Assembly: GCA_944363595.1 (NCBI GenBank)
Contig: CALVUN010000010.1
Span: 6,852-70,851 of the forward strand
DNA length: 64,000 nucleotides
Reading direction: 5' to 3'
DNA from: an uncultured Bacilli bacterium
GTDB taxonomy: Bacteria > Bacillota_I > Bacilli_A > RF39 > UBA660
Made by a program: the position numbers and the translations under genes. Shown here piece after piece: positions 2,601 through 56,648 of this stretch (position 1 is the first letter of the stretch; every line of letters starts with the position of its first letter). The notes under the pieces were generated by a model that was not told where the DNA came from, made no database searches, and worked only from the letters and a program-made list of their open reading frames with translations.

Positions 2601-5283
2601 TGAACAAATAATAAGAACATATCTTGATTTTTTTAAAGAAAGAGGTCACTTAGAGATACCAAGTAGTTCTCTAATACCCAAAGACGATCCAACTATACTT
2701 TGGATAAATGCCGGAGTAACACCCCTAAAAAAATATTTCGATGGAAGTGTCATACCCACTAATCGTCGCTTAACAAGTTGCCAAAAATGCATTAGAACAG
2801 GTGATATCGAAAGTGTCGGTAAAACTGCCCGTCATCACACCTTTTTTCAAATGCTAGGTAACTTTTCAGTAGGAGATTACTTCAAAAAAGAAGCTTTAAC
2901 ATGGGCTTACGAATTATTAACAAGTGAAAAATACTTTGGTTTAGATAAAAACAAATTATATATAACTGTCTATCCCGCTGATGAAGAAGCCTACAATTTG
3001 TGGGTAAGCTTAGGTATTGATCCATCACATATTATCAAATTAGAAAATAACTTTTGGGAAATAGGACCAGGACCAAGTGGCCCTGATAGCGAAATATTCT
3101 ATGACCGTGGTGAAAAATACGATCCGCAAAAACAGGGAATCAAACTATTAGAACAAGAAATAGAAAACGATCGCTATATCGAAATTTGGAATAACGTCTT
3201 TAGCCAATACAATGCCAAAGAAGGTGTACCAAGAAGTGCCTATGAAGAATTACCAAGTAAAAATATCGATACTGGTATGGGAGTCGAAAGAATGGCCTGC
3301 ATTATGCAAGAAACCGAAACCAATTACGAAACTGACCTCTTCATGCCAATTATGGATGCCATTTCCCAAATAGCCAAAATAGAATACTTAGGTCAAATGG
3401 AATTCAAAGTAATCGCCGATCACATAAGAAGTTTAACTTTTGCCCTATCCGATGGAGCAACTTTTAGTAACTATGGTCGTGGTTATGTTCTAAGAAGACT
3501 ATTAAGAAGAGCTGTACGTATGAGTCGCAAATTAAACATCAACCATAGCTTTATGGCCGAATTAGTCGATGTCGTTGTAGATAAATACAATAGCATTTAT
3601 CCCGAATTAAACCAAACCAAAGGACTTGTCAAAGAACTAATTACCAAAGAAGAAGAATTATTCCATCGTACCTTACTATCAGGTGAGAAAAAACTAGAAG
3701 AAATATTCACCACAAGTCCCGTTAAACAAATAAATGGCAGTGATGCTTTCAAACTATACGATACCTATGGTTTTCCTATCGAATTAACAGTCGAATACGC
3801 AAATGAACAAGGCTTTACTGTCGATACCGATGGCTTTCAAAAATACATGAATGCCCAAAAAGAACTAGCCAGAAGTAGCCGTAAAGTAGAAGCAAGTATG
3901 AATCTACAAAACGAAGCATTAATGAACTTTACAGAAGAAAGTACATTTATCGGTTACGATACCCTAGGCTCTGAGACAACTGTTATAGCCATTATGAAAG
4001 ACAATAATTTTGTCGATAGCTTAAATGATGAAGGATATCTAATATTAAAAGAAAATCCCTTCTATGCCGAATCAGGTGGTCAAATTGATGATACAGGTTA
4101 TCTAAAAAATGACCATTTCAAAGCAGAAGTCATGGAAGTAGTCAAAGCTCCTAATAAACAACACTTATTATATGTCAAAGTACTAGAGGGCCAAGTCAAC
4201 AAAAATGATACCGTCTTAACTCACGTATCTCAAGAAAAAAGAGAAAGCATTACCAGAAATCACAGTGCTACCCACTTACTTCAAAAAACATTACAAGAAT
4301 TTTTAGGCACTAACGTCCATCAAGCAGGTTCCAAAGTCGAAGAAGAAACCTTCCGTTTCGATTTCACTTATCCAGGTCGTTTAAGTGATGAAATAATCGT
4401 TAAAATAGAAAATAGTATCAACGATAAAGTCAATGCTGCTTATGAAACAAAAATTGAATATATGAAGAAAGAAGAAGCAATTGCCAAAGGAGCTATGGCC
4501 TTATTTGATAACAAATATACAGATAATGTAAGAGTTGTTACCATGGGACCATCAATTGAACTATGCGGTGGAACCCACGTCAAAAATACCAAAGATATAG
4601 GTCATGTTGCTATCATTTCCGTTGAAAACAAAGGAGCAGATACTTTCCGTATCGTGGGTGCCACAGATAACAACATCGCCAAAGCCTTATATGAAGCAAT
4701 AAAACCATATAACGACGAAATGAAAAAGCTCCTATCCAAAGCCAAAAAAATAATCGAAGAAGCCCATACTCTAGGTATCGATCTAACTTTAGATTTTAAC
4801 ATCAATAATGATTTACCAACCGGATATAAAGATATAATCTATAATAAACAAGAACTAGCTACATTAAAAGAAAGTATCAAAGAACTAGAAAAAACATATC
4901 TATCACAAAAGACAGCCAAGTCCATTAGTGATTTATCCGCTTTCATCGATAGTAAAGAAGAAATAAATAACATAAATGTAATTATAGCTATCACTAAAGA
5001 TTACGAAATATCTGTCTTAAAACAAGTTGTCGATGCCTTATCAAACCAAGTACCAAATAGTTTTATTCTCTTAGCTAACCTAAAAGAAAATAATGCCAAT
5101 TTCATTGCCAAAAGCAATACATCAAATGAAAAACTTAACTGTGGTAGCATTATCAAAGACTTGTCTATCAAATGTGGTGGCAATGGGGGAGGTAATCAAC
5201 ACTTTGCCCAAGGCGGTGGAACAAATGCTAGTGAATTAGGAACCCTTTTAGGTGAAGTAAAAGAAACAATCAAGAACCTTTAA
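2584..5283 (+). CDS. alaS: alanyl-tRNA synthetase
   Basis: 899 aa with full-length AlaS hallmarks: catalytic core, the editing-domain motifs HSATHLL and CGGTHV, and the C-terminal DHHA1-like GGGNGGG motif. Confidence 0.95.
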   Translation: MKKMTSEQIIRTYLDFFKERGHLEIPSSSLIPKDDPTILWINAGVTPLKKYFDGSVIPTNRRLTSCQKCIRTGDIESVGKTARHHTFFQMLGNFSVGDYFKKEALTWAYELLTSEKYFGLDKNKLYITVYPADEEAYNLWVSLGIDPSHIIKLENNFWEIGPGPSGPDSEIFYDRGEKYDPQKQGIKLLEQEIENDRYIEIWNNVFSQYNAKEGVPRSAYEELPSKNIDTGMGVERMACIMQETETNYETDLFMPIMDAISQIAKIEYLGQMEFKVIADHIRSLTFALSDGATFSNYGRGYVLRRLLRRAVRMSRKLNINHSFMAELVDVVVDKYNSIYPELNQTKGLVKELITKEEELFHRTLLSGEKKLEEIFTTSPVKQINGSDAFKLYDTYGFPIELTVEYANEQGFTVDTDGFQKYMNAQKELARSSRKVEASMNLQNEALMNFTEESTFIGYDTLGSETTVIAIMKDNNFVDSLNDEGYLILKENPFYAESGGQIDDTGYLKNDHFKAEVMEVVKAPNKQHLLYVKVLEGQVNKNDTVLTHVSQEKRESITRNHSATHLLQKTLQEFLGTNVHQAGSKVEEETFRFDFTYPGRLSDEIIVKIENSINDKVNAAYETKIEYMKKEEAIAKGAMALFDNKYTDNVRVVTMGPSIELCGGTHVKNTKDIGHVAIISVENKGADTFRIVGATDNNIAKALYEAIKPYNDEMKKLLSKAKKIIEEAHTLGIDLTLDFNINNDLPTGYKDIIYNKQELATLKESIKELEKTYLSQKTAKSISDLSAFIDSKEEINNINVIIAITKDYEISVLKQVVDALSNQVPNSFILLANLKENNANFIAKSNTSNEKLNCGSIIKDLSIKCGGNGGGNQHFAQGGGTNASELGTLLGEVKETIKNL

Positions 5284-5296: not shown

Positions 5297-5360
5297 TATT
5301 CCCTTGACAAATACAAAAACAATTGCTAAAATATATTTTCAAAAAAAGGGGGGGATAAAA

Positions 5361-6104
5361 ATGGATAAAGTATATGGCTTTACCAATGAAAACTTAGCAT
5401 CATTTACCCAAATATATGAGTTTAATAATGCTAGTGTCTTAACTGTTCTTGGAAGTGGTGATCAATATTTCCTAGCCAAACTAAATCAAGCTCAAAATGT
5501 CGATGTTTTCGATATCAATTATTTAACATGGTATCACTTCATCCTAAAATATACCGCTATTAAAGTATTATCACATGAAGAATTTATCCAAATGTTTATC
5601 AAAGATAACTTAGACAATCAAGAAATATATAACAAAATAAGTCCATATCTACCAAATGAAGTAAAATATTTCTTTGATAAATTAATCAAATTAAACCGCA
5701 AATTTTCATCGATAAAAATCAAAAATACAATCTTTAAAAATACCACCAAAGAGTATATACCATATTTAGCTAAAGATAAATATTACCAACTACAAAACAT
5801 CCTAAAAACAAGTACCTTACCACATTTCTATAACTATAATCTAATAAATTTACCCAACCATTTAACAAGTACTTACGATATAGCTTTGCTATCCAATATC
5901 TATCATTATCTACCTATCGATTGCCAAACATATCGTAAATTCTTAGATACTATACCATCACAAAATATCCTAGCTTTCTATACGTGGATATTAAATAAAG
6001 AAGAATATAATGAATTTTTAGCCAATGGTTTTAACATCACTAAAGTAGACAGCGTTATCAATCAAAAAGATTATGTTATCACTCTAAAACGTCATCTAAA
6101 ATAA
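5361..6104 (+). CDS. hypothetical protein (possibly DUF3419/BtaA-like SAM-dependent fold)
   Basis: The start is placed at MDKVYG, after a ribosome-binding site containing a G7 run (5348-5354). The VLTVLGSGDQ motif supports the family guess. The 5304 start given by the ORF track has no ribosome-binding site. Confidence 0.45.
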   Translation: MDKVYGFTNENLASFTQIYEFNNASVLTVLGSGDQYFLAKLNQAQNVDVFDINYLTWYHFILKYTAIKVLSHEEFIQMFIKDNLDNQEIYNKISPYLPNEVKYFFDKLIKLNRKFSSIKIKNTIFKNTTKEYIPYLAKDKYYQLQNILKTSTLPHFYNYNLINLPNHLTSTYDIALLSNIYHYLPIDCQTYRKFLDTIPSQNILAFYTWILNKEEYNEFLANGFNITKVDSVINQKDYVITLKRHLK

Positions 6105-25408: not shown

Positions 25409-25485
25409 TGGCGTCCCAGACAGGATTCGAACCTGTGACCGCACGCTTAGAAGGCGTGTGCTCTATCCAGCTGAGCTACTAGAAC
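25409..25485 (-). tRNA. tRNA-Arg (anticodon UCU), with CCA encoded
   Basis: Clean cloverleaf on the minus strand: GTTCTAG acceptor stem, D-arm GCTC/GAGC, anticodon stem CACGC/GCGTG around loop CTTCTAA, T-arm ACAGG-TTCGAAT-CCTGT, then discriminator G and CCA. A TTGACA-18-TGcTATACT promoter lies at 25507-25536 on the minus strand. Confidence 0.85.
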
Positions 25486-31098: not shown

Positions 31099-31119
31099 AT
31101 ACTTACCAAGGTGACCAAA

Positions 31120-31899
31120 ATGAAAGTATATATTGACCTAGTATTATTTCTAAATCTCATTATTGATCTTTTCCTCCTCATAGCGGTAACAATCATCCTA
31201 AAAAGAAAAACAAATATTAAACGCCTAATAATATCAGCCCTAATAGGAAGTCTAACCACTTTAACTCTTCTCATAAAACTAACTAATACATCTCTTTTCA
31301 TCATAAAGATAATCATATCTATTATTATGGTTATAACCGCTTTTCATTATCAAAACATTCGTTATACCATAAAAAATATAACCTATTTATATATAGTAAG
31401 CATAATTCTAGGAGGAGCCCTCTATCTATTAAATGTCCAATTTTTCTATCACCAAGAAGGACTAACTTTCTATCATGACGGTTTAGGATTAAATATTTTT
31501 GTAATTATCATTTTAAGTCCCATCATTATCTATTTATATTTAAAAAATATCAAAGAATTAAAAAACAACTATTCTAATTACTACTATCTAGACATATACT
31601 TAAAAGACCAATCAAAAATATCCCTAATAGGATTTGTTGATACGGGCAACAATTTAAAAGATCCTTATACCAAAAGTCCCATCATCATTGTAAGCAAAAA
31701 CAAAATCCCCCCCCAAGAAAATTACCTTTTAGTGCCTTTCCAAGTAATCAATCATCATGAATTATTAAAATGTATAAAGCCCCAAAAAATAATTATTGAT
31801 AACCAAATAATCACTACTAAAGCATTAATAGGTATTTCTGATAATAATATCAACATCGATGGTGTTGACTGTATCATTCATCCCGAATTAATAAAATAA
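31120..31899 (+). CDS. spoIIGA: sigma-E processing peptidase SpoIIGA
   Basis: N-terminal transmembrane helices (YIDLVLFLNLIIDLFLL) and the aspartic protease motif FVDTGNNLKDP. It lies directly upstream of sigE. It contains a C8 tract at 31697-31704. Confidence 0.85.
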   Translation: MKVYIDLVLFLNLIIDLFLLIAVTIILKRKTNIKRLIISALIGSLTTLTLLIKLTNTSLFIIKIIISIIMVITAFHYQNIRYTIKNITYLYIVSIILGGALYLLNVQFFYHQEGLTFYHDGLGLNIFVIIILSPIIIYLYLKNIKELKNNYSNYYYLDIYLKDQSKISLIGFVDTGNNLKDPYTKSPIIIVSKNKIPPQENYLLVPFQVINHHELLKCIKPQKIIIDNQIITTKALIGISDNNINIDGVDCIIHPELIK

Positions 31900-31915: not shown

Positions 31916-32605
31916 ATGCAAAAAATAATATTATTCATAAAAAAATTATTATCTCGTTTCAATCATCTTTTTTATGTAGGTAGCACTGATAAATTACCTG
32001 AACCATTAAGTAAAGAAGAAGAAATAAAATACGTCGAATTAGCTATGCAAAATGATGAACAAGCCCGCAATAAATTAATTGAACATAATTTAAGACTAGT
32101 CGTATTTTTAGCTAAGAAATATGAAAATACCAATATTGACTTAGAAGATTTAGTATCAATTGGAACAATTGGATTAATAAAAGGTGTAAATACATATAAA
32201 TTAGATAAAAATATTAAACTAGCAACTTATGCATCACGCTGTATCGATAATGAAATTCTCATGTATTTAAGAAAAACCAAAAAAAAGCGAACTGAGATAA
32301 GCTTTGAAGATAGTTTAAGTTTTGATGGTGAAGGTAATGAACTACATTTAGAAGATGTTTTAGGTACAGAACCAGATATAGTAACCAAAGGTTTAGAAGA
32401 AGATTTAGATAAAAAAACACTTTATCAAGAAATAAAAAAATTAGATCAAAGAGATAAAGAAATAATAGAATTAAGATATGGCTTAAACGGAAAAAAAGAG
32501 ATGACCCAAAAAGAAGTTGCCGACTTATTAGGTATCTCCCAATCATACATATCACGTATTGAAAAAAAAGTAATAAAAAAACTAAGTAATATTATCAAAA
32601 TATAA
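31916..32605 (+). CDS. sigE: sporulation sigma factor SigE (pro-sigma-E)
   Basis: Pro-sequence, region 2 (NLRLVVFLAKKYENTNIDLEDLVSIGTIGLIKGVNTY) and region 4 HTH (MTQKEVADLLGISQSYISRIEKK). Confidence 0.9.
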   Translation: MQKIILFIKKLLSRFNHLFYVGSTDKLPEPLSKEEEIKYVELAMQNDEQARNKLIEHNLRLVVFLAKKYENTNIDLEDLVSIGTIGLIKGVNTYKLDKNIKLATYASRCIDNEILMYLRKTKKKRTEISFEDSLSFDGEGNELHLEDVLGTEPDIVTKGLEEDLDKKTLYQEIKKLDQRDKEIIELRYGLNGKKEMTQKEVADLLGISQSYISRIEKKVIKKLSNIIKI

Positions 32606-36327: not shown

Positions 36328-36370
36328 ACTATTAATATATGAAAAATTAAGTAAAAAGTCCCCAAAAAGC

Positions 36371-36591
36371 TTGTCAAATAATTAACAATATGGTAATATT
36401 AATATGTAAGATATAGAAAGGTAGGTGTCTCCCTCATGGATAAAGTAAATTATAATAAGTTAACTACAATGATACTAGGGGGGGGGGTATAAATTACCTA
36501 CTTTAAGGATAATTGATAATATAAACAGAAAAAAAACTACAAAGATTAAAGTTTAGCATATAACTAAGCTTATTTCTTTGTAGTTTTTTTC
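36371..36591 (+). repeat. copy A of a repeated roughly 170-nt micro-gene element (promoter, leader, 18-codon ORF, conserved terminator hairpin)
   Basis: TTGTCA-17-TGgTAATAT promoter at 36371-36399. Ribosome-binding site AGGTAGGTG. ORF at 36436-36492. Conserved hairpin AGTTTAG-N7-CTAAGCT at 36550-36570 inside terminator 36533-36591. Homologous to 47668-47868 and, decayed, to 53799-53888. Confidence 0.6.
36436..36492 (+). CDS. micro-ORF A: MDKVNYNKLTTMILGGGV (contains a G10 homopolymer)
   Basis: In frame with a homologous ORF in copy B. The G10 run at 36478-36487 encodes GGG. Confidence 0.4.
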   Translation: MDKVNYNKLTTMILGGGV

Positions 36592-36609
36592 TATAGGAGG
36601 AAGTAAAAG

Positions 36610-38325
36610 ATGAAAAAAATTACAATTATTTTAGGTATCATATTAGTTATTGCCTTAGTAATAAGTTCTTCATATGCCTTATTTTATCAAGAAAATACTT
36701 TAGATAATCAAGAAAGATATGCAACAGGAATATTAGATATTCAATTAGTTGAAGAAGAAGGCTACAATACAAGTATTCAATTAAATAATACTTTACCAAT
36801 GAGTGATGAAGAAGGAAAAAATACTACACCATTTAAGTTAAAATTAAAGAATGTAGGTAATTTATCATATACATTTGATTTAAAATTAATAAATACTGAA
36901 AATGAAAATAGTATAAATCCAGATTATATAAAAATAATGGTTGATAGTGATGAACCAACTACATATAGTAATTTAAATAATAATACTATTAAAACTAATA
37001 TAACTTTAGATCCAAATAAAGAAATAGTAATTGAAATAAGAGTATGGCTGAATAATAATATTTTGAATAGTGAAATTGGTAAAAAATTTAGTGGTAAACT
37101 TGTTGTAGATGGTGTAGGTAGTGAGTATGTTACTGAAAGTACAAAAACATTAGAAAAATTAAATTTAGTATCTAATATAGGAAATCCCGATTTTACTAAA
37201 ATAGCAAATACGGACGAAGGAATATATGCAGCAGAAGATGATTATGGCACAAGCTATTACTTTAGAGGAGCAGTAGAAAATAATTATGTTAAATTTGGTG
37301 AATATGCTAATGATATTTACTATGGATATAATACAGATAAAGTTAGTGCGACATCAGATTATTTACATAAAACATATAATTCTTTAGAAGAATGTCAAAA
37401 TGCAAGTGATTATAACAAATCATGTCAGCTTAGAATAAGCAAGGGAACTCCGATGTACTGGCGAATAATAAGAATAAATGGTGATGGAAGTATCAGAATG
37501 ATCTATGATGGAACAGAACCTCATGAAAATGGAGAGCAAACCTATGATAAAATTATTAATATGAGTGCTTATAATGAAATTGGAACTGATTTAAACTATG
37601 CAGGATATATGTATGGAAATAAATTCTTTGATTGGGATAGTAATTCTAGTTCTAGTGGACTTCTTGCGTATTACGATGAATTTACAGAAACAGGCTTATA
37701 TACATATCCAACTCCAATTGAAGGATCTTATTTTGAAAATATCAATGATAGTAAAGTAAAAAAAGAAATAGATAATTGGTATGCTTCTCATTTTACAAAT
37801 ACCCAATATGAAAAATATCTTGCTGATGTAATTTACTGTAATTATCGTAAGTCATATAAAAATTTTATTGATATAGCATACAAAGGAGGATTTGACTATT
37901 ATGACTTTAATTATAGTACTCCCTTTACAAGTTTAAAGTGTACAATTCAAAATGACCGTTTTACCGTAAATGATACTACTTTAGGTAACGGCGACTTAAC
38001 GTATCCAATAGGATTGATAACTATAGACGAAGTAAATATGGCAGGCGTTTTAGGTGTAGCTAATGGAAGAGCAGAAAAAAATTATTTAATGGGAACAGGT
38101 TTTTGGACAATGTCACCAAATGCTCAAATAATTTACATAGAATTATCAGACACAAACCATGAAGCAAATGTTGTTACATTACATATGGTTGACGTCAATG
38201 GTGCAACATCAAATGCTGTTTTCAATGATACTACCGGAGTGAGACCTGTAATTTCTATAAAAGGCGATACAAACTTAATAGGAACAGGTACTATCAATAA
38301 TCCATTCAGATTAGCAGAAGATTAA
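36610..38325 (+). CDS. large secreted protein with a SipW-cognate-type signal peptide and an N-terminal TasA/camelysin-like domain
   Basis: The N-terminus ...SSSYALFYQENTLDNQERYATGILDIQL fits the AxFxD...GTLDL pattern of SipW-dependent signal peptides. The following domain parallels TasA (NL.P..D....F.L.N.G.L). A roughly 350-aa C-terminal extension is unknown. Confidence 0.5.
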   Translation: MKKITIILGIILVIALVISSSYALFYQENTLDNQERYATGILDIQLVEEEGYNTSIQLNNTLPMSDEEGKNTTPFKLKLKNVGNLSYTFDLKLINTENENSINPDYIKIMVDSDEPTTYSNLNNNTIKTNITLDPNKEIVIEIRVWLNNNILNSEIGKKFSGKLVVDGVGSEYVTESTKTLEKLNLVSNIGNPDFTKIANTDEGIYAAEDDYGTSYYFRGAVENNYVKFGEYANDIYYGYNTDKVSATSDYLHKTYNSLEECQNASDYNKSCQLRISKGTPMYWRIIRINGDGSIRMIYDGTEPHENGEQTYDKIINMSAYNEIGTDLNYAGYMYGNKFFDWDSNSSSSGLLAYYDEFTETGLYTYPTPIEGSYFENINDSKVKKEIDNWYASHFTNTQYEKYLADVIYCNYRKSYKNFIDIAYKGGFDYYDFNYSTPFTSLKCTIQNDRFTVNDTTLGNGDLTYPIGLITIDEVNMAGVLGVANGRAEKNYLMGTGFWTMSPNAQIIYIELSDTNHEANVVTLHMVDVNGATSNAVFNDTTGVRPVISIKGDTNLIGTGTINNPFRLAED

Positions 38326-43149: not shown

Positions 43150-44892
43150 ATGAATAAAAATAAATCCAATTTTTTAAAATGTATAAAAAAAAGTTGGAAA
43201 TATATAAGAAAAACAAAACTACAATTAGTTATATATATAATTCTTGAAACACTTGTAACACTAACTATTGTTATTTTCCCAGCATTATCATCAAAAATAA
43301 TACTAGCAATAACAGATAATTTGTTAGACCAAGTAATAATTATAAGTTTAATAAGTCTTATATGTGGTATAATATACACCATTGCGGGAAATATAGCTAA
43401 TCGTTTTTCACAATACTTATATATAAAAATAGTTCAAGATATTCAAGAAAAAATGACAGAAGAAGCATTAAAAATAGAAACAAAAGAAATAGATAAAAAC
43501 GGTACAGGAATTTTTATAGAACGTTTAAATAATGATACCAACACCTTAGCGGATGTCTTTATAGTGATCATAAGTGATTTAATACCACTTATTACCAAAG
43601 TAAGTTTAATATTATCAATTTTCTTTATAAATAAATATATGTTCATATATTGCTTGTTCAATGTTGTATGTATATTTATAATAGATAGATATCGTATGAA
43701 AAAATTTTATGAAGTAAGCAATGAATTAAAAGAGCAAACAGAAATAAAAACTAGTCTTACATCAGAAATAGTAAGAGGATTTCGTGATATAAGAGTATTA
43801 AATATTGAAAAACCAATTCTAGCAAAAATGAAACAAGTCATAAGTTCATGTAACAAAAAATCATATAACTTAAGAAATATCAGAAGAAAATATAATTTAA
43901 TCGAGGGAATAGCATCTGAAATATTTAGTTTTGGCTTTATTATTTTTGGCGTTTACTTATGTAGTATAAATAAATTAGAAATAGCCAATTTCATCCTATT
44001 ATATATGTATGGAAGTAATATAGAAACAGCACTAACCCAGCTACCAGTTATCTTAGAAGAAATAAAAAGATTTGATTTATCTACAGAAAGAGTCTTTGAA
44101 GTTATAGAAAATAACAAATATGCCAAAGAAAAGTTTGGCAATGAAACAATTCCCAAAGCCCATGGAGATTTTGAATTTCAGAATGTAACATTTAGTTATG
44201 ATGGTAAACATAACGTCATAGATAACATGAGTTTTAAAATAAGAGCTAACGAAACAGTATCATTTGTAGGAAAATCAGGAGCAGGGAAGACAACGATATT
44301 CAATCTTCTAAACAAATCATATCCCATTACTCAAGGTAAAATATTAATAGATGGCAAAGATATAAATACACTTGACAAAGATAGTATTAGAAATAATATG
44401 TCAATTATTACTCAAAATCCATATATTTTCAATATGAGTATCAAAGAAAATTTAGCAATTGTCAAACCAGATCTAACTGAAGAAGAAATGGTAAAAGTAT
44501 GCAAAATAGCATGCCTCGATGATTTTATTGAAACATTGCCAGATAAATATAACACCATTATTGGTGAAAATGGTATTATGCTATCAGGAGGCCAAAAACA
44601 ACGCTTAGCTATTGCTAGAGCACTTCTCAAAAAAACAGAAATAATTCTTTTAGATGAAGCTACAAGTGCTTTAGATAACGATACCCAAAGTGAAATTCAA
44701 AAAGCAATTAACAATATGAAAGGTGAATATACTATTCTAATAATTGCCCATCGCTTATCAACTGTCATTGATAGTGATCGCATTATTCTAATCGACAATG
44801 GTCATGTCATCGATTCTGGAACTCATAATGAATTATTACATAAAAATGAATTTTACCAACATTTGTATCAGAAAGAACTAGAAGAAAACTAA
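43150..44892 (+). CDS. ABC transporter, fused permease/ATPase (type I exporter)
   Basis: Six transmembrane helices, Walker A GKSGAGKTT, signature LSGGQKQRLAIARAL, Walker B ILLDEATSALD. Confidence 0.85.
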   Translation: MNKNKSNFLKCIKKSWKYIRKTKLQLVIYIILETLVTLTIVIFPALSSKIILAITDNLLDQVIIISLISLICGIIYTIAGNIANRFSQYLYIKIVQDIQEKMTEEALKIETKEIDKNGTGIFIERLNNDTNTLADVFIVIISDLIPLITKVSLILSIFFINKYMFIYCLFNVVCIFIIDRYRMKKFYEVSNELKEQTEIKTSLTSEIVRGFRDIRVLNIEKPILAKMKQVISSCNKKSYNLRNIRRKYNLIEGIASEIFSFGFIIFGVYLCSINKLEIANFILLYMYGSNIETALTQLPVILEEIKRFDLSTERVFEVIENNKYAKEKFGNETIPKAHGDFEFQNVTFSYDGKHNVIDNMSFKIRANETVSFVGKSGAGKTTIFNLLNKSYPITQGKILIDGKDINTLDKDSIRNNMSIITQNPYIFNMSIKENLAIVKPDLTEEEMVKVCKIACLDDFIETLPDKYNTIIGENGIMLSGGQKQRLAIARALLKKTEIILLDEATSALDNDTQSEIQKAINNMKGEYTILIIAHRLSTVIDSDRIILIDNGHVIDSGTHNELLHKNEFYQHLYQKELEEN

Positions 44893-45359: not shown

Positions 45360-45504
45360 ATCTTTTACCCCTTCCTAAAATATTATATGATTTACTAGCC
45401 TAAATGTTAAAAAAAATTAAAAAATAAAAAAAGAATAAAAAGTATTAAAAAAAAAACAAAAATATGATACAATATATTTAGAATAAAAATAGGAGGTGGA
45501 AAGT

Positions 45505-46890
45505 ATGATACTTGATATAATTTTAGCACCCTTTTTAGCTGTATATAAAATGTTTCATAGCATATTTTCCTTTTTAAATCGTCCTATAAATAAAAAGCCA
45601 GAAAAAGAAAAAGAAGAAAAAACTTTCGATCCAAATAGCTTAACATCTTCTGATGCTGTTAAAAGTGAAAAAAAGAAAAGATATAAATATCGAGTACGTG
45701 ATGCCTTTGGTAAAGTAAGTGAAGGTACTTTTGATGGATATTCAAAAACAGAAGTTCATTCATTTCTTTTAAGTCAAAACTATGAAGTCATTTCAATTGA
45801 AGAAGACAAATTATCTACAAGTTTAGGACTAGTTCAACTAAGTCAAACAAAAAAAATGAATTATAAAGATTTAAACTTCTTTTTAACACAGTTATCTACT
45901 TACATAAAATCAGGTATTCCCCTTGTTGATTCATTAGCAATTCTTAGCCGACAAGTAAAAAAAAGAGGTCAAAAAGGATTATATCAACGCCTAGTTTTTG
46001 ATTTAAACTCAGGTTTAAGCTTTAGCGAAGCAATAAAAAGGCAAGGTACTGTCTTTCCTAATCTATTAATTAATATGTTAAAGACAGCTGAACTAACAGG
46101 AGATTTAACAGATACACTAGATGATATGGCTGATTATTATCGTACTGCCGATTTCAATCGTAAACAAATCATTAGTGCTCTAACATATCCAAGTGTTGTT
46201 TTTGTCTTTTCGGTTGCTGTTTTAACATTTATACTAGTATATGTTGTACCAAATTTTGTCGATATGTTCGGACAAATGGGAGCAGATTTACCATTTATAA
46301 CCGTTATTGTTATTAATTTAAGTAACTTTATTACTAACAACGTCATAACAATTGTTATCATAATTGCCGCAATTATTATCTTGTTAGTAACATTGTATAA
46401 AAACATCAGTTCTTTTCGTTATTTAATGCAATCATTTCTCATGCATATACCAGTTGTAAAAAATATAATAATATATAGTGAAGTTATAACGTTCACTAAA
46501 ACATTTGCATCATTAATTAACCATGACGTTTTCATAACAGATAGTATGGAAATATTAGGAAAAATAACTAATAATGAAGTATATAAACAACTAATTCGTA
46601 GTGCCGTTATTAACTTAAGTAATGGTGATGGAGTATCCAAGGCATTCAAAGGTCATTGGGCTTTTCCAGATACAGCTTACGAAATGCTACTAACAGGTGA
46701 GAAAACTGGCCGCCTAGGCACTATGATGACTAATGTTGCAACATATTACCAAGAAGAACAAAAAAACTTAGTAACGCAATTAAAAAGCTTAATTGAACCA
46801 GTTATGATTGTTTTTCTAGCCATAAGTGTTGGTATTATTTTACTTGCCGTAATTTACCCAATGTTTAGTATGTATAGTCAAATCGGATAG
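45505..46890 (+). CDS. type II secretion / type IV pilus platform protein (GspF/PilC/ComGB family)
   Basis: N-terminal cytoplasmic GspF domain (YKYRVRDAFGKVSEGTFDGYSKTEVHSFLLSQNYEVISI), three transmembrane helices and a second GspF repeat. Ribosome-binding site AGGAGG with ATG at 45505 (the ORF track extends upstream). Confidence 0.85.
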   Translation: MILDIILAPFLAVYKMFHSIFSFLNRPINKKPEKEKEEKTFDPNSLTSSDAVKSEKKKRYKYRVRDAFGKVSEGTFDGYSKTEVHSFLLSQNYEVISIEEDKLSTSLGLVQLSQTKKMNYKDLNFFLTQLSTYIKSGIPLVDSLAILSRQVKKRGQKGLYQRLVFDLNSGLSFSEAIKRQGTVFPNLLINMLKTAELTGDLTDTLDDMADYYRTADFNRKQIISALTYPSVVFVFSVAVLTFILVYVVPNFVDMFGQMGADLPFITVIVINLSNFITNNVITIVIIIAAIIILLVTLYKNISSFRYLMQSFLMHIPVVKNIIIYSEVITFTKTFASLINHDVFITDSMEILGKITNNEVYKQLIRSAVINLSNGDGVSKAFKGHWAFPDTAYEMLLTGEKTGRLGTMMTNVATYYQEEQKNLVTQLKSLIEPVMIVFLAISVGIILLAVIYPMFSMYSQIG

Positions 46891-46900
46891 GGGGATAACA

Positions 46901-47665
46901 ATGGAAACATATTATTTAATCTTTTTCTTTATATTAGGATCTGCTATGGGATCCTTCTATCATGTAGTAGCGACACGTTTATCCAATAATGAGTCACTAG
47001 TAAAACCAGGATCCCATTGCCACTATTGCAATCATAAATTAAAATGGTACGAACTAATACCATTATTATCGTACATAATTCAAGGTGGAAAATGTCGTAA
47101 ATGCAAAAAACATATACCATTAAGTTACTTCATTATCGAATTAATAACGGGTATCATCTTTGCTGTATGTTATCATGTTTTTGATTTCAGTGGGGAATTA
47201 TTAATTGCCTTAATTTATACATCAAGTATGATAATAATTATAATAAGTGATATTGAATACATGATAATTTTAGACGAAGTATTAATCTTTGCTTCTGTTG
47301 CTATAACCATAATATATATTTTTTTCTTTGGTATAAATACAACTTTTTCTCATTTATTAAACGCCATCGCGGCCTTTGGATTAATGTATTTAATTAAAAT
47401 AATTGGTGATTTCATGTTTCAAAAAGAATCTCTTGGTGGTGGTGACATAAAATTAATGTTTTTATCAGGACTTGTCATAGGTTTACCACTAAGTGTTTGT
47501 ACAATTTTTTTAGCAACATTTATTGCCTTTCCTATTGCCATATATATATTATTAAGTAAAAAAGATAATCTAATCCCATTTGGGCCATTTTTAAGTATGG
47601 CATCAGTAATAATATTAATTTCTAAAATAAATATTCAAGATGTACTAGACTTTTTAATAAAATAA
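46901..47665 (+). CDS. prepilin peptidase (A24 family, ComC/PilD)
   Basis: N-terminal Zn-binding CxxC...CxxC (CHYCNHKL...CRKCKKHI), transmembrane helices, and the GGGD catalytic-aspartate motif. Confidence 0.85.
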   Translation: METYYLIFFFILGSAMGSFYHVVATRLSNNESLVKPGSHCHYCNHKLKWYELIPLLSYIIQGGKCRKCKKHIPLSYFIIELITGIIFAVCYHVFDFSGELLIALIYTSSMIIIIISDIEYMIILDEVLIFASVAITIIYIFFFGINTTFSHLLNAIAAFGLMYLIKIIGDFMFQKESLGGGDIKLMFLSGLVIGLPLSVCTIFLATFIAFPIAIYILLSKKDNLIPFGPFLSMASVIILISKINIQDVLDFLIK

Positions 47666-47667
47666 TC

Positions 47668-47868
47668 TTAATGTTAAATTAAAAATATGGTAATATATTA
47701 CGTCAGATCTTGAAAGTAGGGGCTCTTCCCATGCCGAAATTAAATTATAGTTTGTTAACTACAACAATACTAGGAATGGTATAAATTAACTACCTTTAAT
47801 ATAATTAATACAATAAAATTATAAAAATTAAAGTTTAGTATAAAGCTAAGCTTTTTTTTTAGCTTTAT
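47668..47868 (+). repeat. copy B of the repeated micro-gene element
   Basis: TTAATG-17-TGgTAATAT promoter at 47668-47696, ribosome-binding site AGTAGGGG, ORF 47731-47784, conserved hairpin AGTTTAGtataaagCTAAGCT followed by T9 at 47832-47860. Aligns with copy A along most of its length. Confidence 0.6.
47731..47784 (+). CDS. micro-ORF B: MPKLNYSLLTTTILGMV
   Basis: Homologous to micro-ORF A, with the same ribosome-binding-site spacing and frame. Confidence 0.4.
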   Translation: MPKLNYSLLTTTILGMV

Positions 47869-53733: not shown

Positions 53734-53798
53734 TACAGTAAATATAAAAAAATGATAATTAAGATTAAAAGAAAATAAAAAAGAATTATAATTATCTA

Positions 53799-53888
53799 TG
53801 CCAAAATTAAATTATAATATGTTAACAATAATAATATTAAGTAATATAAAACTAAATAGTACCTTTAATATTTACCTTAGATTTTAAA
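53799..53888 (+). pseudogene. copy C (decayed) of the micro-gene element; ORF MPKLNYNMLTIIILSNIKLNSTFNIYLRF lacks a ribosome-binding site and terminator hairpin
   Basis: ATGCCAAAATTAAATTATAATATGTTAAC... is homologous to copy B (ATGCCGAAATTAAATTATAGTTTGTTAAC...). The downstream ...TACCTTTAATAT block is retained. No SD sequence and no conserved hairpin. Confidence 0.4.
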
Positions 53889-56429: not shown

Positions 56430-56648
56430 ACGTATTTTAAAGCAAATGAAAGAGACGATATAATAAGTTTTCTTAATAGAGAGTTCATGTATGGTGGAAA
56501 TGGACAAGAAAGTATTATATAGATCACTCTGGATGTTCTTATCTGATATTAGGATAAGACGGTAGTAATACCGTTATTAAATTAAGTAATAAGGTAGGAT
56601 GGTACCGCGTCAGAAACGCTCCTAAATAGGAGTGTTTTTTTTCATTTA
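56430..56648 (+). promoter_or_regulatory. T-box riboswitch leader (probable Ile specifier AUC) with intrinsic terminator
   Basis: Stem I elements (GA/K-turn region, AGAGAG box at about 56476). Candidate specifier AUC-A at about 56523. T-box sequence AAGGTAGGATGGTACCGCG at 56591-56609. Terminator ACGCTCCTaaatAGGAGTGT followed by T8 at 56614-56648. Confidence 0.6.

Follow-up and report, generated by a model that had tools for sequence, protein, structure and literature searches.

The closest described systems are the pil1 and pil3 loci of S. gallolyticus, in which GCAGA repeats within a leader peptide ORF set its reading frame (Danne et al. 2014, PMC3894217). In its short form the leader peptide stops 39 bp (pil1) or 33 bp (pil3) ahead of a hairpin terminator, and little expression results; when the repeats put the ORF out of frame, translation continues into the hairpin or beyond it, and termination is prevented by the ribosome (PMC3894217). 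This was demonstrated by deletion of the terminator and by start-codon and stop-codon mutants (PMC3894217). The S. gallolyticus pili were the only worked example, in the literature searched, of a leader-peptide repeat that controls a terminator.

Poly-G and poly-C contingency loci are known from Campylobacter jejuni, Neisseria and Haemophilus influenzae, where the tract lies in the coding region or the promoter spacer of the regulated gene, and the hallmark of such loci is high reversible switching, at about 1e-3 to 1e-5 per generation. A phase-variable terminator in the 5' leader of a cell-surface protein gene is found at cwpV of Clostridioides difficile, where it is controlled by site-specific DNA inversion. 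The poly-G and poly-C loci are also taken up in the discussion of the pil study, as is the E. coli trp leader, the example of ribosome-mediated attenuation of amino-acid operons (PMC3894217).

The window analyzed here is the whole stretch of 64,000 nucleotides from an uncultured Bacilli bacterium. The G run of interest lies in a micro-ORF, 118 nt upstream of a gene for a 571-aa protein, and is part of a conserved unit of about 220 nt (nhmmer extent, 36371-36590). The order in the unit is promoter, very strong Shine-Dalgarno (SD) region, micro-ORF and hairpin terminator, with the downstream gene following directly:

36371-36399, + strand: promoter with an extended -10 (TTGTCA, 17 nt, TAATAT, with TG upstream)
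36416-36427, + strand: strong SD region of 12 nt, GAAAGGTAGGTG, serving the micro-ORF; 5' strand of helix P1
36428-36435, + strand: CU tract TCTCCCTC, immediately ahead of the ATG; partner of the G run as the 5' side of helix P2
36436-36492, + strand: leader micro-ORF in its present G10 short state, 18 codons from ATG to TAA, reading MDKVNYNKLTTMILGGGV and stop
36478-36487, + strand: G10 homopolymer, a candidate slipped-strand tract, comprising three GGG Gly codons and the first base of a Val codon; 3' strand of helix P2
36488-36556, + strand: alternative long frame, joined to the micro-ORF by one G fewer (G9) or two more (G12), reading YKLPTLRIIDNINRKKTTKIKV and stop, with the TAG at 36554-36556 inside the terminator hairpin
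36496-36504, + strand: anti-SD ACCTACTTT; 3' strand of helix P1
36529-36590, + strand: intrinsic-terminator-like hairpin, -24.1 kcal/mol, ending in U7, 36 nt past the short-frame stop
36610-38325, + strand: downstream gene, 571 aa, starting 19 nt past the terminator, with the SD AGGAGG at 36595-36600

The promoter spacer ATTAACAATATGRTAATATT is almost invariant between lineages, an A-rich linker separates the anti-SD from the hairpin, and the gap between the terminator and the 571-aa ORF is too small for a promoter. The hairpin was not flagged by a simple terminator scan of the window because it has few G-C pairs. A search of Rfam over 36330-36620, at the gathering thresholds and at E up to 10, gave a best E of 0.18, with all matches far below gathering.

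On balance, the G run is probably the mutable element of a phase-variable leader-peptide attenuator, a homopolymer form of the pil1/pil3 switch. This reading is favored because the geometry equals that of the S. gallolyticus switches. The conserved promoter would give a short leader with a very strong SD and the micro-ORF that holds the run. With a run of 1 modulo 3 (G10, G7), the ribosome would halt at the TAA three bases past the run, 32 to 36 nt before the hairpin; the terminator would then form, and little transcript would enter the downstream gene (OFF or low). Slipped-strand mispairing during replication would remove or add G residues to give 0 modulo 3 (G9, G12), fusing the ORF to the second frame. 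The translating ribosome would then run into or through the hairpin and block its folding, and RNA polymerase would continue into the promoterless gene for a putatively exported protein (ON). The helix formed by the SD with the anti-SD and by the CU tract with the G run may limit leader translation to ribosomes that load during RNA synthesis, and could also serve as a pause hairpin coupling ribosome and polymerase. The reading thus supposes that the ORF is translated, that the hairpin is an active terminator, that the tract switches at a high rate within a population, and that the effect on transcription has this direction.

The likeness to pil1/pil3 extends to most elements of the unit. In the present units, as at pil1 and pil3, a simple-sequence repeat lies inside a leader ORF upstream of a gene; the short frame stops a little before a hairpin (32 to 36 nt here), and the long frame reaches it, ending here in the loop or the 3' arm. 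A hairpin and U run stand between leader and gene with no promoter after them, repeat number differs between homologous leaders and shifts the frame, promoterless genes for (here putative) surface proteins follow, and there are several loci per genome. There are also differences. The repeat is a G homopolymer rather than GCAGA, and there is no sequence similarity; only one out-of-frame phase reaches the hairpin here, since G8 or G11 would stop 29 nt before its G-C part. The present unit has an extra helix that would sequester the SD and in which the repeat itself pairs with the CU tract, for which the model in PMC3894217 has no counterpart. Moreover, the N-terminal peptide is conserved, the downstream genes form an uncharacterized family rather than sortase pili, and the present system is known from sequence alone.

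The other systems match less closely. Like the poly-G/poly-C contingency loci, the unit has a long G run in an AT-rich genome, in or upstream of genes for surface products, with a length that shifts the frame; unlike them, the tract is in a separate leader ORF and would act via a terminator. The trp leader likewise combines a leader peptide, a hairpin terminator and a decision by ribosome position, and the upstream hairpin here could be a pause element; in contrast, no alternative antiterminator pairing was found here, and the signal would be a heritable frame change rather than tRNA charging, despite three rare GGG codons. A phase-variable terminator in the 5' leader, as proposed here, is shared with cwpV, also of a low-GC Gram-positive organism, whereas cwpV uses inversion and has no leader peptide.

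The window holds exactly ten uninterrupted G residues on the + strand at 36478-36487 (...ATGATACTA GGGGGGGGGG TATAAATTACC...), and the claim of the first-pass annotation that such a run is far beyond chance was supported by both a shuffle test and codon usage. G/C runs of at least 7 gave 7 overlapping matches in the window compared to 0.58 expected from dinucleotide-preserving shuffles, and 0 of 100 shuffles reached 7. The only other such runs in the window, where the GC content per 2 kb is 24 to 35%, are a G7 at 5348 and a C8 at 31707; apart from these two, runs of this length were confined to the leaders in 143 kb of related DNA. In the long ORFs of the window, GGG accounts for 27 of 772 Gly codons (3.5%), and the probability of three consecutive GGG codons is about 4e-5 by codon usage, while the Gly codons of the tract were GGG throughout in every lineage compared. 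Since GGG is this rare among Gly codons here, the homopolymer itself was deduced to be under selection. The statement in the same annotation that the run keeps the frame was also correct, as the window unit reads CTA GGG GGG GGG GTA TAA (..LGGGV and stop) and a second copy, copy B, reads CTA GGA ATG GTA TAA (..LGMV and stop).

Homologous leaders with a tract were found in metagenomes and MAGs, and in these the run was always uninterrupted and of 7, 9 or 10 G. The same locus in another sample of the window's lineage (L002, with SNPs) was reached via the divergent 103-aa neighbor protein of the window and has G10. When 185,579 species genomes were scanned for a 22-base pattern of the ORF, the outcome was one true relative, L004, from another species-level MAG of an uncultured Bacilli bacterium (MHKLNYNMLTRMILGGGV and stop; G10; last sense codon GTG, not GTA), and one chance match (L005). 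Homologues of the 571-aa protein gave four further loci (L007 to L010), of which L007 has a G7 leader (..ILGGV and stop) and L009 is without a leader. No locus was found in a first scan of JGI metagenomes; a second scan with a variable gap returned 59 loci, of which only L071 (G10) was real. Eight contigs (L011, L012 and L072 to L077) have an uninterrupted G9, one of them at 11x coverage. Exact-protein look-ups with the 571-aa protein, a pyrimidine-nucleoside phosphorylase-like neighbor and the database peptide P0132 gave no further strains of the window's lineage. Since the 10 matches among viral contigs were all chance, no link to phages was deduced.

The most direct comparisons are between leaders at one locus. 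The G7 leader of L007 and the G9 leaders of L011 and L012 share a common upstream gene and are 88 to 100% identical, and the G10 leader of L071 and the G9 leader of L074 are near identical and both stand behind a glycyl-tRNA synthetase gene. Repeat number differs and the leader frame changes in both L007 versus L011 and L071 versus L074. Every G9 locus was found through its called long ORF, and the sequences retrieved irrespective of tract length were all in the short state (5/5; four G10 and one G7); G10 could for this reason be a stable allele.

The layout of leader plus terminator predates the long G run; L010 (1-250) has this layout with only G5. It carries a 54%-identical orthologue of the 571-aa gene behind a diverged leader ORF of 28 codons (..KVNDMLTTSKYGGQIYY and stop), with a different terminator and no obvious SD-sequestering helix. 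A 45-nt insertion forming a GTAC..GTAC hairpin lies between the transcription start region and the SD in L007 (170-215), L011 (3935-3980) and L072 (about 4935-4980), and is absent from the window, L004, L071 and L074. The position of a GGG-GGG-GGG leader directly behind a glycyl-tRNA synthetase gene in L074 (3555-4928) and L071 (1-107) is probably a coincidence. A link to glycine supply or Gly decoding, suggested by the three GGG codons and these two loci, is less likely, as the other copies have unrelated upstream genes.

The frames beyond the tract were compared among seven lineages. The long frame is open for 22 to 27 codons in all seven, four of which are now in the short state, while the other two frames stop after 0 and after 2 to 5 codons; in the window, one G more (G11) gives a 23-aa product with a stop at 36504-36506. 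The stops of the long frame lie in the hairpin loop or as UUG UAG just ahead of the U run, the latter in L072 and L074, where UUG UAG forms the last bases of the hairpin 3' arm. The short-frame stop is 32 to 36 nt from the hairpin in the seven lineages.

These comparisons bear on the remaining claims of the first-pass annotation. A slipped-strand length switch that shifts the frame of the micro-ORF and alters the fate of the 3' transcript is supported by the comparison of sequences between lineages (7, 9 or 10 G, two frames, and an alternative frame open in all lineages). The architecture of a contingency locus was supported as regards a frame-changing tract length; the unit is always joined to a terminator and a promoterless gene, which suggests a leader with a regulatory role and not a contingency gene of the classic intragenic kind. 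The proposal that the tract marks a signaling or toxin peptide family was not upheld, as there was no Pfam or NCBIfam match and the unit is always joined in this manner.

A peptide function was nevertheless considered further. The long ORF of 36 to 44 aa may be a real small-protein gene, for example for an exported peptide with a double-glycine-like leader cut after ILGGG; the tract would then switch the peptide, the hairpin would only be its terminator, and the downstream gene would be expressed by constitutive read-through. This is rather unlikely, and is compatible with the attenuator rather than exclusive of it. Hypothetical fusion peptides (G9 or G6) were built for three lineages and searched against a protein collection, with at least 14 significant small proteins of 36 to 67 aa as the outcome (e.g., MQKLNFKSLIYCILGGGYKLTQTTGNKELQTTKISLVRG and MDKVYYNKLTTMILGGGYKLTTFNIINRIKLQRLKFSI), which counts in favor of the attenuator; more long-form peptides were found among cluster members and in an exhaustive search of representatives. 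The motif M-x-K-L-N-[FY]-x-x-L-T-x-x-I-L-G-G-G is kept across lineages with conservative changes (K/R, L/V, Y/F), and past the tract 33 of 69 codon differences are synonymous in the long frame compared to 16 of 83 and 11 of 72 in the other frames. The conserved N-terminal peptide also counts against the attenuator, as a pure spacer role leaves it unexplained. However, almost no synonymous change was seen in the N-terminal half (5 versus 92), from which it was deduced that its conservation may be at the RNA level. The C-terminal part is of low complexity (K/T/N/E) and coincides with the anti-SD and the hairpin arm, and its stop position and length vary (36 to 67 aa). The family is also tiny, with 9 matches among 1.84 billion representatives in the exhaustive search, and seven peptides searched against Pfam and NCBIfam at E up to 10 gave no match, bacteriocin and pheromone leader models included.

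Double-glycine leaders, found in class II bacteriocins and competence pheromones, usually have hydrophobic positions at -4/-7/-12/-15. The present peptide resembles them in having a short N-terminal segment with hydrophobic residues and Gly-Gly, followed by a short cationic peptide, but it matches no HMM and does not fit this pattern. No dedicated C39 peptidase-transporter was seen in the neighborhoods of the leader copies, and the sole ABC transporter of the window (43150-44892, 580 aa) has membrane helices at its start, leaving no apparent room for a C39 peptidase domain. Two of the database peptides, P0141 and P0124, are long forms reading ILGEG and VLGGE, which implies, at the level of sequence, A-interrupted G tracts and thus alleles locked in the long frame.

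The RNA folds were examined with RNAfold for the window and three relatives. The predicted structures contain two helices in the leader, P1 between the SD and the anti-SD and P2 between the CU tract and the G run. P1 is supported by covariation, with GGTAGGT/ACCTAC in the window versus GGTGGT paired with ACCACC, ACCACT or ATCACC elsewhere. The consensus fold recovers P2 and the terminator hairpin, the stem of which shows compensatory changes of A-U to G-C and of C-G to U-A. Across the relatives the hairpins are of -15 to -24 kcal/mol with U6-7, and the next ATG is 19 to 25 nt on. No conserved antiterminator pairing that competes with the hairpin was found in the RNA folds or the alignment.

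The G run could instead have a constant role in structure and coding, providing one side of the SD-sequestering helix (its 3' strand) and a Gly-Gly-Gly segment, with its different lengths being old, stable differences between lineages. CU tract:G run pairing is predicted for all lineages and by the consensus fold, three separate lineages and both samples of the window's own lineage have G10, and copy B holds a weaker helix, UUCC:GGAA. That copy B retains a helix without the homopolymer was also counted against the attenuator. A helix, however, could form without an unbroken run made up of the rarest Gly codon, tract length differs with a change of frame between leaders that are nearly identical and share a locus, and a never-used long frame would not remain open in the short-state alleles of an AT-rich genome. 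A fixed feature was accordingly judged unlikely. A more general point against the attenuator is that ribosome-mediated attenuation depends on the coupling of transcription to translation, and this coupling is believed to be loose in some Firmicutes at least.

The open long frame in the G10 and G7 alleles could also be explained by recoding, in which slippage of RNA polymerase on the G run, or a -1 frameshift of the ribosome there, would send a constant fraction of ribosomes into the long frame from the G10 allele, tuning read-through without a change in the DNA. On the sequence G GGG GGG GGG, tRNA-Gly could pair again perfectly once shifted by -1; the stop of the 0 frame is two codons further on, and decoding would be slowed by the rare GGG codons. 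Most known sites of transcriptional slippage in bacteria are runs of A or T, and G9 alleles are present in the DNA, indicating that mutation does occur; recoding was thus considered improbable. An error of sequencing or assembly at the homopolymer is hardly credible, in spite of the low coverage of several contigs (about 2-3x for L007, L012 and L076), since every length came up again in separate samples and studies (G10 for the window, L002, L004 and L071; G9 for the eight contigs), and the tract is internal with conserved sequence on its flanks.

Two further copies of the unit are present in the window:

47675-47868, + strand: copy B, behind a prepilin peptidase gene, with a micro-ORF at 47731-47784 (MPKLNYSLLTTTILGMV and stop)
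53780-53887, + strand: copy C, strongly decayed, with an ORF at 53798-53887, without a G run (nhmmer E = 0.17)

Copy B has GGAATGG (47773-47779) where the first unit has the G run, and its long frame is closed after 14 codons by a stop at a position where its relative P0132 has Gln. Because of these two features, copy B was assigned, from its sequence, to a decaying relic locked in the short state. It has its own promoter and terminator and precedes an NfeD/flotillin-like pair, with no gene of the downstream family after it. Directly before it (45496-47665) are genes for a type IV pilus/competence-like platform protein (T2SSF) and the prepilin peptidase (A24).

Every tract-bearing leader stands before a member of one mosaic protein family, whose members share 29 to 73% identity and have N termini of three types, all of which include a hydrophobic helix. 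Over 5000 homologues belong to the family, and their annotation is uninformative. In the AlphaFold model of the 571-aa protein (pLDDT 78), an N-terminal hydrophobic helix is followed by beta-sandwich domains, and the modeled protein looks exported. The model had no match in the PDB at E below 0.001, with weak Ig-like/PapD-like similarity, and a profile search of PDB sequences was empty. A SipW/TasA-type signal peptide on the downstream proteins was considered and found to be without NCBIfam or Pfam support.

In L007 versus L011 and in L071 versus L074, identity drops to about 45% right past the leader, so that at each of the two loci a shared upstream gene and leader stand before unrelated members of the family. 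From these alignments, the leader seems to mark a boundary for cassette exchange or recombination. In L008 (1300-1400), unrelated sequence takes the place of the unit's promoter and ORF, with the junction falling exactly where the G tract would be (..GGGCGTATAA/GGTATAAATTAACC..); the locus adjoins two phage-integrase-family genes and retains the terminator and downstream gene. In L075 (1321-2973), the family gene is broken into parts of 295 and 232 aa, even though its leader has G9. A second tract was considered as the cause of this split and rejected in favor of a nonsense substitution relative to L074 and L076.

A bolder and unlikely reading is that the unit is a portable, multicopy cassette promoter, with a conserved leader peptide that is itself functional (as a pause signal in the nascent chain or as an exported peptide produced in the ON phase only) and a leader that serves as a homology site for the swapping of mosaic surface-protein genes. 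If so, a single element in uncultured, spore-forming Bacilli of the gut would combine on/off switching with the exchange of cassettes. For the attenuator, if correct, the setting is a sequence-unrelated homopolymer version in a different, uncultured lineage, with several loci per genome and a large family of putatively exported proteins; the leader-repeat terminator logic would then have arisen more than once and would be a general means of surface variation in Gram-positive commensals. The 18-codon state escapes gene callers, which record the 39- to 44-aa state as a hypothetical protein, and the expression of the downstream family would be unpredictable from a genome unless the tract length is read.

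The two other long G/C runs of the window are in different contexts. The C8 run at 31707-31714 encodes Pro-Pro (ATC CCC CCC CAA) within a 262-aa ORF (31111-31899) that has a DTGN motif, resembles SpoIIGA, a protease of sporulation, and is followed by a sigma-E-like gene (31916-32605). CCC makes up 17% of Pro codons, and a change of ±1 base in the run would truncate the SpoIIGA-like protein. The G7 run at 5348-5354 makes up the ribosome-binding site (AAAGGGGGGGATAAAAATG) for an ORF that begins at 5363, and a change in its length would alter the strength or spacing of this SD. Ordinary features include a T-box leader (56437-56626; 99 bits) and a tRNA gene on the minus strand (25412-25485).
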